From an uncultured Prevotellaceae bacterium (GTDB lineage: Bacteria; Bacteroidota; Bacteroidia; Bacteroidales; Muribaculaceae), in contig ONJX01000018.1 in assembly GCA_900318255.1 (NCBI GenBank), forward strand, positions 5,598-69,597: 64,000 nucleotides of DNA, read 5' to 3'. Below are positions 25,698-27,670 of this stretch, piece by piece. The notes below the pieces were generated by a model. The model worked only from the letters and a program-made list of their open reading frames with translations, was not told the origin of the DNA and searched no databases. How positions within the stretch are numbered: the stretch's first letter is position 1; each line of letters begins with the position of its first letter. A program made the translations under genes and the position numbers.

Positions 25698-26762
25698 TTA
25701 TTTCTTTGCTTTGCAGATGGTTAGCCAGTTGCAGTGCATCATGTTGCCGTCATCGTCACGCAGGTGGAATGGCCCACCGGCACACCAGTCCCACACCTTG
25801 CACTTGGTGCACTCATCGTGTTTCATCCAGCGCCGGTTGCGCATCGGTTCAAAGCGGTTGTTCCACACGTCGCTGAAGCGGTCGTGATAGATGTTGCCTT
25901 GGTTGTAATGTGAGCGAATGCTCAGGCAGCCACTGATGTCGCCGTTGGCGAGTATCGATGCCGTCATTGTGCCAGCATCGCATCGGTAGATGTGGCCTCT
26001 CACTTCTCCCTCATAGTCACCGAGGAAGCCTTCGCAGCTGTAGGACAGGTTAATCTGCCCCTCCCTGCGTGTGGCGGCTATGAAGTCCATCAGCTCCACA
26101 TACTGCTCTGGGCTTAGATAGAGCTCGCTGTTGAGCTTTGCTCTGCCTTGCGGGAAGATGGTGAAGATGCGCCACTTGGTCACACCGGCATCGATAAGGT
26201 GCTGCTTGAGTAGTTGCAAGGTAGAGAAATTGCGCTGATTGACGCAGGTGATCACGTCCCACAGCAGGTTGCGCGTGCGGGTGAGAAGCTTAATGGCATC
26301 CATCGCTCCGCTGAACGAGCCTCCCCTGAGCCAGTTGTGTTCCGGCTCAAGTCCGTCGAGGCTCACCGCTATGGTGCGAAGGCCAGCGTCGAGCACCTCG
26401 CGCAGCATGGGCTCGGTGAGCAGCACTCCATTGGTCACGAAGCCCCACAGGAAACCTCGGTTAGTGATTGCTTTGCCACATTCCACTATGTCGGGACGTA
26501 CTAGTGGCTCGCCACCCACGGTGTTGACGAGTACATTTTTAGGGTTGGTCATCGTTGCCACGTCGTCGAGCACCGCGAGGAAATGCTCTAGCGGCATGTC
26601 GGGAGTGGCTGACACCTTGCGGCAGTCGCTGCCACAATGCCTGCACGAGAGGTTGCATCGCAGTGTACATTCCCAGAACAGCTGCCTGAGAGGATGATTC
26701 TTCTCAAGCCATCGACGCTCGCGGCGTGTGTTCTCAAAGTCTATGAGCTGGCGTGTTCTCAT
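25698..26762 (-). CDS. Radical SAM/SPASM enzyme of the rSAM-lipoprotein system (TIGR04133-like)
   Basis: HPLRQLFWECTLRCNLSCRHC (CxxxCxxC), GGEP, SLDG; SPASM cysteines CDAG..ISGC..CTKC..WC..C. Confidence 0.88.
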   Translation of the reverse strand: MRTRQLIDFENTRRERRWLEKNHPLRQLFWECTLRCNLSCRHCGSDCRKVSATPDMPLEHFLAVLDDVATMTNPKNVLVNTVGGEPLVRPDIVECGKAITNRGFLWGFVTNGVLLTEPMLREVLDAGLRTIAVSLDGLEPEHNWLRGGSFSGAMDAIKLLTRTRNLLWDVITCVNQRNFSTLQLLKQHLIDAGVTKWRIFTIFPQGRAKLNSELYLSPEQYVELMDFIAATRREGQINLSYSCEGFLGDYEGEVRGHIYRCDAGTMTASILANGDISGCLSIRSHYNQGNIYHDRFSDVWNNRFEPMRNRRWMKHDECTKCKVWDWCAGGPFHLRDDDGNMMHCNWLTICKAKK

Positions 26763-27070
26763 TATTTCACTTTTTGTGGTCCTGTGGGCTGTTCATCAAC
26801 AATGGTGGGGGCAGCTTCTTGGTCATCAAAATAAGAAGGAGGACCATAGACCACCTCTACCTCTGACACCTCTTCGATGGGAGGACCATAGACATCCTCC
26901 ACAGGGCTCACGTCGCTTGGCTCACTCGTTGCCGAGCTTGAGAGGCTCTCGCTGGCATCGCTATTGATGGGCTTTTTAGAATGATGACACGCCGTCACAC
27001 CTATCAAAGCACCTGCTACTACCAGTCCTCTCGCCAGCCATTTCTTAATTATGAATGTCGATTTTTTCAT
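26762..27070 (-). CDS. Small lipoprotein, putative rSAM substrate 1
   Basis: GVTAC lipobox; DVYGPP and VVYGPP motifs; stop overlaps the rSAM ATG. Confidence 0.8.
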   Translation of the reverse strand: MKKSTFIIKKWLARGLVVAGALIGVTACHHSKKPINSDASESLSSSATSEPSDVSPVEDVYGPPIEEVSEVEVVYGPPSYFDDQEAAPTIVDEQPTGPQKVK

Positions 27071-27324
27071 TTTTCAGGCTCTTTATTCTGTTTCAACTCG
27101 GGCTCGTTGGTAGCTCTAATGCTGTCGATGTTCTCGACAGGAGGTCCATACACATCTTCAATCGCTTTTGCACGTTGAGGCACGTAACCTGGTGGCGGAC
27201 CATAGACGCCCTCGGCAGGATTAGGCCCAAGCTTATGTGTGCATGACGAGATGCCAAGCAATGCGCCAATGGCGACCAAAGTGCGCACGCACCACTTGTG
27301 AACATTAAAATTAAACTTTTTCAT
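27067..27324 (-). CDS. Small lipoprotein, putative rSAM substrate 2
   Basis: True start MKKFNFNVHKW; GISSC lipobox; GVYGPP and DVYGPP motifs. Confidence 0.8.
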   Translation of the reverse strand: MKKFNFNVHKWCVRTLVAIGALLGISSCTHKLGPNPAEGVYGPPPGYVPQRAKAIEDVYGPPVENIDSIRATNEPELKQNKEPEK

Positions 27325-27373
27325 TGAGGTTTTGTGGTTTTGGAGTTTTGAGGTTTTGTGGTTTTGGAGTTGA

Positions 27374-27670
27374 TCATTCTTCCTCGTTGAGGGGAGTTGG
27401 CACTTTGGGAGACAAAATGTCGCTGTTAGAAATTGTGTCATAGACTACATTGCCCTCCTTATCGATGCGTTTTTTGACCAATGTCGCTTCTTGTGACACC
27501 TTCACATTAACGAGTGGACCATACTTAAGATTGTGAATTGGAGGTGTGGGAGTACCGTCATAATCTATCATTCTCTTGCTATGCGAACACGCCGAGATGC
27601 CTAGCAGCGCGCCAATAGCAACTATTGCCCTTGCCGACCATTTCTGGAACCTAAACCCCACCTTTTTCAT
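27374..27670 (-). CDS. Small lipoprotein, putative rSAM substrate 3
   Basis: Leader paralogous to the other two (MKK..KW..R..V..GALLG); GISAC lipobox; LKYGP motif. Confidence 0.75.
   Translation of the reverse strand: MKKVGFRFQKWSARAIVAIGALLGISACSHSKRMIDYDGTPTPPIHNLKYGPLVNVKVSQEATLVKKRIDKEGNVVYDTISNSDILSPKVPTPLNEEE

Follow-up and report, generated by a model that had tools for sequence, protein, structure and literature searches.

Spliceases such as PlpX/PlpY, PcpX and RhaX are radical S-adenosylmethionine (rSAM) enzymes with a SPASM domain that are encoded beside substrates bearing an xYG motif, often in the form xYGxP (LYGLPP, PIRPLYGLPI). PlpX (IPR026482) acts on Nif11 precursors, from which tyramine is excised at xYG, leaving an alpha-keto-beta-amide. 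For PlpX, PcpX and RhaX, the motif is reported to lie beside the SAM cluster. It can be recognized without a leader, as leader-free splicing by PlpXY works on a tag of about ten residues (PIRP[L/G]YGLPI or AVAA[M/G]YGVVFP); binary splicease systems do without the Y protein, and spliced (ketoamide) peptides inhibit Ser and Cys proteases (PMC11626197). The NCBIfam families TIGR04133 and TIGR04134, hypothetical equivalogs that form the 'rSAM/lipoprotein system', have been named for over a decade and have stayed functionally blank. Here, an operon of three small lipoprotein genes (LP1, LP2 and LP3) and a TIGR04133 rSAM/SPASM gene was analyzed, which occupies positions 25698-27670 on the minus strand of a 64,000-nucleotide stretch, hereafter the window, from an uncultured rumen Prevotellaceae bacterium (contig ONJX01000018.1, positions 5,598 to 69,597; assembly GCA_900318255.1; Muribaculaceae in GTDB). 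The comparisons reported below make it quite probable that LP1-LP3 are substrates of the enzyme, that the tyrosine of an xYG(x)P motif is the modified site, that recognition is directed by this motif and that modification takes place before Sec export and lipidation.

The pairing of enzyme and lipoprotein as such is already known from the database family names, and close homologues of the enzyme carry the JGI label "radical SAM enzyme (rSAM/lipoprotein system)". No report on the TIGR04133/TIGR04134 family was found in the literature searched, the coverage of which did not extend to the 2022 splicease survey of Scott et al.; the lone literature match for TIGR04134 proved to be a misprint for a type IX secretion system domain. 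That survey (Chem 8:2659), as summarized in PMC10849128, scanned all rSAM-SPASM proteins of reference proteomes for YG-rich neighbours and reported 189 genera and 27 validated pairs, and it may already list or have tested the TIGR04133 family. Relative to the literature searched, three findings are new: that xYGxP holds across the family, that the substrates are of many kinds and include partners without a lipobox cysteine, and that the enzymes are linked to the splicease clade.

The xYGxP motif in LP1-LP3 and in other TIGR04133 partners

A first-pass annotation of the window had described three paralogous lipoproteins of 85-102 residues upstream of the rSAM gene, and all three are present on the minus strand, the stop codon of the last overlapping the ATG of the enzyme gene. 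LP1 (27374-27670) was read from the sequence as a 98-residue prolipoprotein, in which the leader MKKVGFRFQKWSARAIVAIGALLGISA precedes Cys28 of the lipobox ISAC and LKYGPL (Tyr50, 27512-27529) is the sole motif. LP2 (27067-27324; lipobox ISSC, Cys28) is a prolipoprotein of 85 residues counted from MKKFNF and has the two motifs GVYGPP (Tyr41, 27193-27210) and DVYGPP (Tyr59, 27139-27156). Its open frame extends further upstream, to 27441, and the start was set at MKK because paralogues and orthologues begin there. LP3 (26762-27070; lipobox VTAC, Cys28) has 102 residues, an acidic, Ser/Pro-rich mature part and the motifs DVYGPP (Tyr61, 26879-26896) and VVYGPP (Tyr75, 26837-26854), so that all five motifs listed in the annotation were recovered.

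The leaders of LP1-LP3 consist of a long basic n-region with the conserved pattern F-x-[IV]-x-K-W-x-x-R, a hydrophobic stretch and the lipobox, and they follow the consensus MKK-x2-F-x-[FVI]-x-KW-x-[AV]R-x-[IL]V-x-[IA]GAL[LI]G-[IV]-[ST]-[AS]-C with the cysteine as residue 28. That the leaders are similar and the mature parts dissimilar, as noted before, is borne out by pairwise identities of 50-64% and 19-28%, respectively. The mature parts contain no Cys, 10-18% Pro, 14-20% acidic residues and few large hydrophobic residues, and they look disordered. Searches of LP1-LP3 against Pfam and NCBIfam gave no meaningful match, and the TIGR04134 model matched none of them (nothing at E<=1, with a cutoff of 39.8 bits), while in checks of the same model the control from locus L039 scored 102 bits and a short protein from L064 scored 22 bits. 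The motifs lie 13-47 residues past the lipobox cysteine. In the 285 residues of the three lipoproteins YGP occurs five times, compared with 0.05 occurrences of YG.P expected at the background rate of related loci, and YG.P was counted once among the 16,610 residues encoded by all long open reading frames (ORFs) of the window. The locus thus resembles the described rSAM/lipoprotein system in that a full-score enzyme is encoded directly beside putative lipoproteins with a signal peptide, a lipobox cysteine and a subsequent xYGxP site, but it differs in that the window proteins (85-102 residues, one or two VYGPP-type sites) are domain-less and apparently disordered, whereas TIGR04134 proteins are transthyretin-like.

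The motif was followed through 81 TIGR04133 loci, namely the window and the flanks of 80 further loci, with 77 zones at a distance of 2-3.3 kb as controls. A same-strand ORF containing YG.P was present within 1 kb of the enzyme gene at 68 of the 81 loci (upstream at 54, only downstream at 14) as compared to 5 of the 77 control zones, and several of the 13 loci missing YG.P have variants such as YGPGP and C-YGPAP. The co-occurrence of TIGR04133 enzymes with small lipoproteins, which the first-pass annotation had taken as established, is accordingly real and general across the loci examined. The density of YG.P was 7.75 per 1000 residues in signal-bearing upstream neighbours and 0.18 per 1000 in background ORFs, a 42-fold difference among loci that are mutually related, for which reason an exact Poisson P is not meaningful. 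Among 129 sites, where the constancy of Tyr and Gly is by construction since these two residues define the counted sites, the residue before Tyr was V (42), M (28), E (20), L (14), I (9) or K (5), the position right after Gly was variable (P, S, T, V, A, Q, G), and Pro stood two residues after Gly, i.e., at +3 from Tyr, in 91 cases.

The proteins that carry the motif fall into several classes: short disordered lipopeptides like LP1-LP3; TIGR04134 lipoproteins of about 135-160 residues with a transthyretin-like (CarboxypepD_reg) domain, which have CEYGTP, CLYGSP or MEYGQP just past the lipobox; lipoproteins with a coiled coil and [VI]YG[ST]PE repeats; 133-residue lipoproteins with VIYGPPE; proteins from genes downstream of the enzyme, with a hydrophobic segment at the N-terminus, no lipobox cysteine and two copies of VYGPP or [VM]YGGP; and TonB_C-domain proteins with [LK]YG[AV]P. 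They are tightly coupled to the enzyme in translation, on either side of its gene, and no further biosynthetic or transport genes are conserved near the TIGR04133 loci. No feature other than the motif is common to these classes, even the type of N-terminal anchor being different, and since the partners have nothing else in common, the enzyme most plausibly recognizes the motif itself. The substrate range would hence be far wider than the TIGR04134 model. A lack of YG conservation among homologous lipoproteins, which the first-pass annotation had named as a refuting observation, was not encountered: xYG(x)P is retained, and it is all that partners of otherwise unrelated kinds have conserved.

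Several of the other loci differ in architecture. In some Muribaculaceae and Sodaliphilus genomes (L006-L010 and L023), motif-bearing partners lie downstream of the rSAM gene and have the hydrophobic segment K-x-[IL]-TAVGAVVAAGLTPG and no lipobox cysteine. Three tandem TonB_C-domain proteins with [LK]YG[AV]P are encoded at L023:6251-8698, and because these bear the motif, TonB-like energy transducers may also be substrates. The gene that ends at the rSAM start in L014, L015, L016 and L046 (Bacteroides and relatives) codes for a protein of 600-700 residues, the N-terminus of which (GQGTFGITYLA...) looks kinase-like by eye. Next after the rSAM gene comes one for a protein of 135-200 residues in which [VM]YGGP occurs twice, a different architecture within TIGR04133. 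A conserved lipoprotein of about 475 residues, which bears an xVYGRPY site as well as the motif CCMNCHTSN, adjoins the rSAM gene or the 133-residue VIYGPPE partner in L049-L051, L061 and L079 and may be a further substrate or a functional partner. Moreover, plasmid pTS1 of the rumen spirochaete Treponema saccharophilum (L082) carries a TIGR04133/TIGR04134 pair beside a DNA invertase gene, with an enzyme 46% identical to that of the window and a motif that begins at the lipobox cysteine itself (TSC-YGMP); the presence of the pair on this plasmid suggests horizontal transfer out of Bacteroidales.

Orthologous operons were available from five other Muribaculaceae genomes (L001-L005), in which the rSAM protein is 75-90% identical. 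Reading frames and motifs are retained in all five while the flanking sequence drifts. The LP1 orthologue in L001 has both LKYGPP and LKYGPL, and in L001 and L002 the orthologues of LP2 (55-62% identity) and LP3 (62-64% identity) retain both motifs. The motif codons of the five genomes differ synonymously (GTC/GTG/GTT, GGT/GGA/GGC/GGG, CCA/CCT/CCG/CCC), which argues for selection on the protein level at the motif. That the small ORFs are non-functional, or that recurrence of the motif reflects recent duplication without selective meaning, could be proposed because the three genes are paralogous and their proteins match no model. This explanation is effectively refuted by the retained frames and motifs with synonymous codon changes in five genomes, by transcription of the genes (see below) and by the recurrence of the motif among non-homologous partner families, and we assign it only a negligible probability.

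The enzyme and its nearest relatives

The rSAM/SPASM gene (25698-26762, minus) encodes 354 residues. Its assignment to the TIGR04133 type in the first-pass annotation holds, as the NCBIfam model scored 485.1 bits with a cutoff of 425 (E 9.8e-146, residues 4-345 of 354), and Pfam recognized Radical_SAM and SPASM domains (SPASM 34.8 bits, cutoff 21.5). The cluster motif CX3CX2C is present as C36-x3-C40-x2-C43 (residues 36-43, 26634-26657), and seven cysteines of the SPASM region (243, 261, 279, 318, 321, 327 and 344) are invariant among 36 TIGR04133 sequences. The sequence contains no signal peptide, for which reason the enzyme must act in the cytoplasm. An AlphaFold2 model of the enzyme alone (pLDDT 91.9) shows an N-terminal amphipathic helix (residues 3-22), a partial TIM barrel and the SPASM domain, and no winged-helix RiPP recognition element (RRE; RiPP, a peptide made by the ribosome and modified after translation). 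Foldseek matched this model to SuiB, anSME, SkfB, PqqE and ChlB, all of which are peptide- or protein-modifying SPASM enzymes. The homologue search returned 4359 cluster representatives at E<=1e-20, and no fewer than 548 GTDB species genomes, nearly all of gut or rumen Bacteroidales, contain relatives of the enzyme. Among the carriers, Parabacteroides distasonis and Bacteroides caecigallinarum (loci L056 and L014) are culturable.

Outside TIGR04133, the best NCBIfam match was TIGR04103, "nif11-class peptide radical SAM maturase 3", with 126.8 bits, and further scores were 115 bits for the GDL-motif maturase, 112 for MftC and 111 for NirJ2. A tblastn search against plasmids identified relatives outside TIGR04133 in Agathobacter (140 bits) and Ralstonia (134 bits) as well as GDL-motif maturases (132 bits) and a Nostoc TIGR04103 member (126 bits); BLAST scores to this xYG-associated clade ranged from 122 to 140 bits as compared to 99 for MftC, 87 for TIGR04053 and 78 for NirJ. 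The Nostoc enzyme is 28.5% identical to that of the window. Its locus, taken from a plasmid record, comprises a Nif11 precursor, the rSAM gene and a 71-residue protein, arranged as in type I spliceotide clusters, and the C-terminus of the precursor, ...SIALYGLPPELF, conforms to xYGxP. The Ralstonia enzyme lies after proteins with PYGV and LYGP, and the GDL and Aureibacter enzymes come after trios of DUF1843 peptides starting with ...LYG, PYG or xYA/xYM.

The GDL (DUF1843) maturases of the TIGR03913 'trio' type resemble the window operon in having three tandem small substrate genes directly upstream of a SPASM enzyme, in substrates with LYG or PYG near the N-terminus and in enzymes of the same signature (described below). 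In contrast to LP1-LP3, their substrates are cytoplasmic helical peptides without signal peptide, and their enzymes comprise 475-519 residues with a zinc-ribbon-like C-terminal tail. Two such DUF1843 ('GDL motif') trios before a TIGR03913-type rSAM gene were seen at L085:2171-2884 and L086:537-1237, with LYG/PYG or xYA/xYM at the equivalent position depending on the copy, which suggests that xY[G/A/M] is the target and that operons of three small substrates plus a SPASM enzyme have a common ancestry.

In neighbour-joining trees, TIGR04133 was sister to the xYG-associated clade that holds TIGR04103, with bootstrap values of 95% when three outgroups were used and 60% with nine. In both the trees and the BLAST comparison, the Nostoc TIGR04103 member serves as a stand-in for experimentally proven spliceases, and the sister grouping of TIGR04133 with the splicease-containing clade is moderately supported. 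Furthermore, the pattern G-x-Y-E-x3-R just before the first SPASM cysteine, GDYEGEVR in the window enzyme (residues 248-255, 25998-26021, minus), was found in TIGR04133 and the TIGR04103, GDL, Ralstonia and Aureibacter enzymes only (22 sequences). The splicease kinship suggested in the first-pass annotation is partly supported, by the grouping with a splicease-containing clade and by the private signature, but the enzyme scored far below the TIGR04103 cutoff. Spliceases and the window system accordingly agree in placing an rSAM-SPASM enzyme beside xYG substrates, in their relatedness by BLAST and neighbour-joining and in the G.YE...R signature. They differ in that splicease substrates are leader-core RiPPs, whereas those proposed here are proteins of the Sec/lipoprotein pathway, and in that splicing is only a prediction for the window enzyme.

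A number of observations weigh against a splicing function of this enzyme. The TIGR04103 cutoff is 725 bits, so that with 126.8 bits the window rSAM is not a member of that family, and other NCBIfam scores are close to this value (AhbD 118, TIGR04053 116 bits). The tree is crude, being neighbour-joining only, and its bootstrap falls with more outgroups. TIGR04133 enzymes lack the fourth cysteine of CX2CX5CX3C and the C-terminal extension of about 90-150 residues of the splicease clade; because of these missing elements, the auxiliary-cluster chemistry of TIGR04133 may differ. At the locus neither a Nif11 or NHLP leader nor a Y protein was detected (no small partner gene, no Nif11/NHLP similarity). 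Known spliceases skip some xYG sites, and one DYG site stayed unprocessed. Lastly, the literature searched contains no mass or activity data for any TIGR04133 enzyme. TIGR04133 has an additional N-terminal helix relative to the splicease clade, and either this helix (residues 3-22) or the F-x-[IV]-x-K-W-x-x-R n-region of the lipoproteins may stand in for the Y protein or the leader.

The closeness of heme-related SPASM families to peptide maturases in these scores (AhbD 118, NirJ2 111 bits) could also indicate that the enzyme, like AhbD and NirJ, produces or alters a cofactor or other small molecule that the lipoproteins bind or need, with xYGxP as a structural or linker motif. The position of the motif within Pro-rich, linker-like sequence, TonB-type proteins included, would fit such a role. 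However, the partners are highly diverse with the motif alone in common, they are translationally coupled on either side of the enzyme gene, as seen at 68 of 81 loci, the surroundings hold no further conserved genes for biosynthesis or transport, and the nearest relatives of the enzyme all adjoin peptide substrates. We therefore regard a small-molecule function as improbable.

Candidate chemistry and predicted fate of the lipoproteins

Enzymes of the anSME type are similar to the window enzyme in size and fold (TM 0.68-0.70), and they also have a SPASM domain without RRE, although sequence identity is only about 18%. In the cytoplasm, anSME acts on the short motif C/S-x-P-x-R of an unfolded exported protein and converts Cys or Ser to formylglycine. 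Following this precedent, we propose that the cytoplasmic rSAM/SPASM enzyme, which has no signal peptide and would bind SAM and [4Fe-4S] clusters, recognizes x-Tyr-Gly-x-Pro directly in the still unfolded prolipoproteins, without RRE or partner protein, and that the tyrosine is altered by radical chemistry ahead of Sec passage. The substrates would then be lipidated at Cys28 through the general lipoprotein pathway, giving short, disordered, lipid-anchored peptides with one or two modified sites each.

A comparable route has been described for DAG-RiPPs, the ChrH/DybH MNIO systems found mainly in Bacteroidota, where modification of the precursor comes before its lipidation by the general pathway (PMC13056109, 2026). 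These systems are alike in that a small precursor with a signal peptidase II (SPII) signal is encoded beside the modifying enzyme only, with no dedicated protease or exporter (PMC13056109). They are unlike the window system in the enzyme, an MNIO (DUF692, multinuclear non-heme iron) instead of an rSAM/SPASM protein, and in the target, CPxCGxG instead of xYGxP.

The first-pass annotation had regarded LP1-LP3 as surface proteins, a claim that was not upheld. Surface-exposed or vesicle-sorted Bacteroides lipoproteins have an acidic signature directly after the cysteine (PMC13056109). In LP1-LP3, the residues after the lipidated cysteine, SHSKRM, THKLGP and HHSKKP, are basic, and an acidic residue is first reached at +9 to +11. 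A surface location was rejected for want of an acidic export signal after Cys28, and for the same reason the lipoproteins most likely face the periplasm.

As to the reaction itself, tyramine excision is the leading candidate, albeit a tentative one with less than an even chance of being correct. A splicease reaction at xYG would remove a tyramine equivalent (C8H9NO, -135.07 Da) and give rise to an alpha-keto-beta-amino amide formed from the residue before Tyr, which is Val at four of the sites and Lys at one; this group would be electrophilic, a warhead of the protease-inhibitor type. Taken as a whole, with the splicing chemistry included, the explanation seems to us to fall somewhat short of an even chance.

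The same pairing and motif could also serve another radical chemistry, such as a cross-link at the Tyr C-beta or ring (-2 Da), a dehydrogenation, a hydroxylation, or the epimerisation either of Tyr itself or of the Val, Met, Leu or Ile in front of it, by which the linker might be stiffened or shielded from proteases. SPASM enzymes of similar fold carry out varied reactions, namely cross-linking by SuiB, oxidation by anSME, epimerisation by EpeE and C-C bond formation by PqqE, and the deviating SPASM cysteine pattern of TIGR04133, the missing C-terminal extension and the close hidden Markov model scores to non-splicease families all point in this direction. Contrarily, the Y+G core is the minimal splicease motif, Pro at +3 occurs in TIGR04103-family substrates as well, and the private G.YE...R signature is common to TIGR04133 and the xYG clade, so that a different chemistry, while a serious contender, appears somewhat doubtful. 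Among such reactions, a triceptide-type cyclophane from Tyr to the +2 residue was considered unlikely, given that position +2 varies and is occupied by Gly in partners of the YGGP classes, and thioether links were excluded in LP1-LP3, the mature parts of which are without Cys. If the chemistry does differ from splicing, it would still constitute a new tyrosine modification of exported proteins.

If splicing is true, TIGR04133 would be another enzyme family capable of backbone splicing, whose substrates take the Sec/lipoprotein route and are apparently recognized by the motif alone. Abundant commensals would then bear electrophilic ketoamides on their envelope, which is relevant in the protease-rich gut, and a compact splicease of 354 residues without partner protein would be useful for protein engineering. 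That the lipid-tethered ketoamides act as protease inhibitors, with a specificity given by the residue before Tyr, is pure inference. Extended to the family, TIGR04133 might represent leader-independent envelope spliceases that excise tyramine at xYGxP in lipoproteins and in TonB-like and coiled-coil proteins with a signal peptide or an N-terminal hydrophobic segment, both in hundreds of Bacteroidales species from gut and rumen and, by transfer, in a rumen Treponema, which we consider rather unlikely at present. Were it true, natural proteins with beta-amino acids and alpha-ketoamides would exist on the Sec/lipoprotein route, and the specificity of a lipid-tethered inhibitor warhead, or of a periplasmic covalent tether, would depend on which residue precedes Tyr. 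For a family that has so far been known by name, a concrete hypothesis is now available that consists of one motif and one mass shift.

Operon layout, expression and neighbourhood

LP1, LP2, LP3 and the rSAM gene form a single operon. The LP2 stop and the LP3 start overlap as ATGA, and the LP3 stop and the rSAM ATG overlap as TAATG. LP1 and LP2 are separated by a tandem duplication (27324-27371), a perfect 24-nt unit present twice with an inner period of 8 that is TTGAGGTT-like. One metatranscriptome contig has an extra 8-nt unit at 27351, from which the length of this repeat appears to differ between strains.

Bacteroides promoters have the -33/-7 consensus TTTG / TAnnTTTG. Upstream of LP1, promoter-like elements of the Bacteroidetes type were read from the sequence at 27703-27734 (minus), with TTTG at -33 (27731-27734) and TATATTTG at -7 (27703-27710) in a spacing of 20 nt, and both fit this consensus. 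Metatranscriptome contigs from rumen and gut span 25300-27353 (rSAM, LP3 and LP2), 26360-27078, 26790-27684 and 27345-27684, which shows co-transcription of the operon genes, with the reservation that such contigs indicate presence only and that DNA carry-over is possible. RNA contigs of three metatranscriptomes terminate at 27684-27690, just downstream of the promoter-like elements, and no RNA was found for 27725-28112 in three of four metatranscriptome runs. Deep short RNA contigs (up to 300x) at 25591-25629, an AT-rich stretch of 39 nt between the convergent rSAM and pantothenate-kinase genes, were judged to be spurious low-complexity matches; the pieces measure 34-39 nt with 3 mismatches, and their flanks continue into unrelated sequence. 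Rfam does not match the stretch, and it is not repeated elsewhere in the window or in the loci. An Rfam search of the operon gave no match either.

The neighbours of the operon are housekeeping genes, for a glycerate kinase, an RsmI-like methylase and, on the other strand, a Fumble-type pantothenate kinase, and a gene for an unassigned coiled-coil lipoprotein. Inspection of these neighbour genes disclosed no PqqD/RRE, protease or exporter gene adjoining the operon, in agreement with the first-pass annotation. The coiled-coil lipoprotein (28983-29942, minus), encoded two genes upstream of the operon, has 319 residues with a long coiled coil, no Pfam match and an ordinary short signal peptide as compared to the long KW-x2-R leaders of LP1-LP3, and its synteny is kept in L001 and L002. 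The first 22 kb of the window have a G+C content of 38-47%, compared with 50-54% thereafter, where the GC skew becomes positive, which may mark an island or a strand/replichore boundary near 22 kb.

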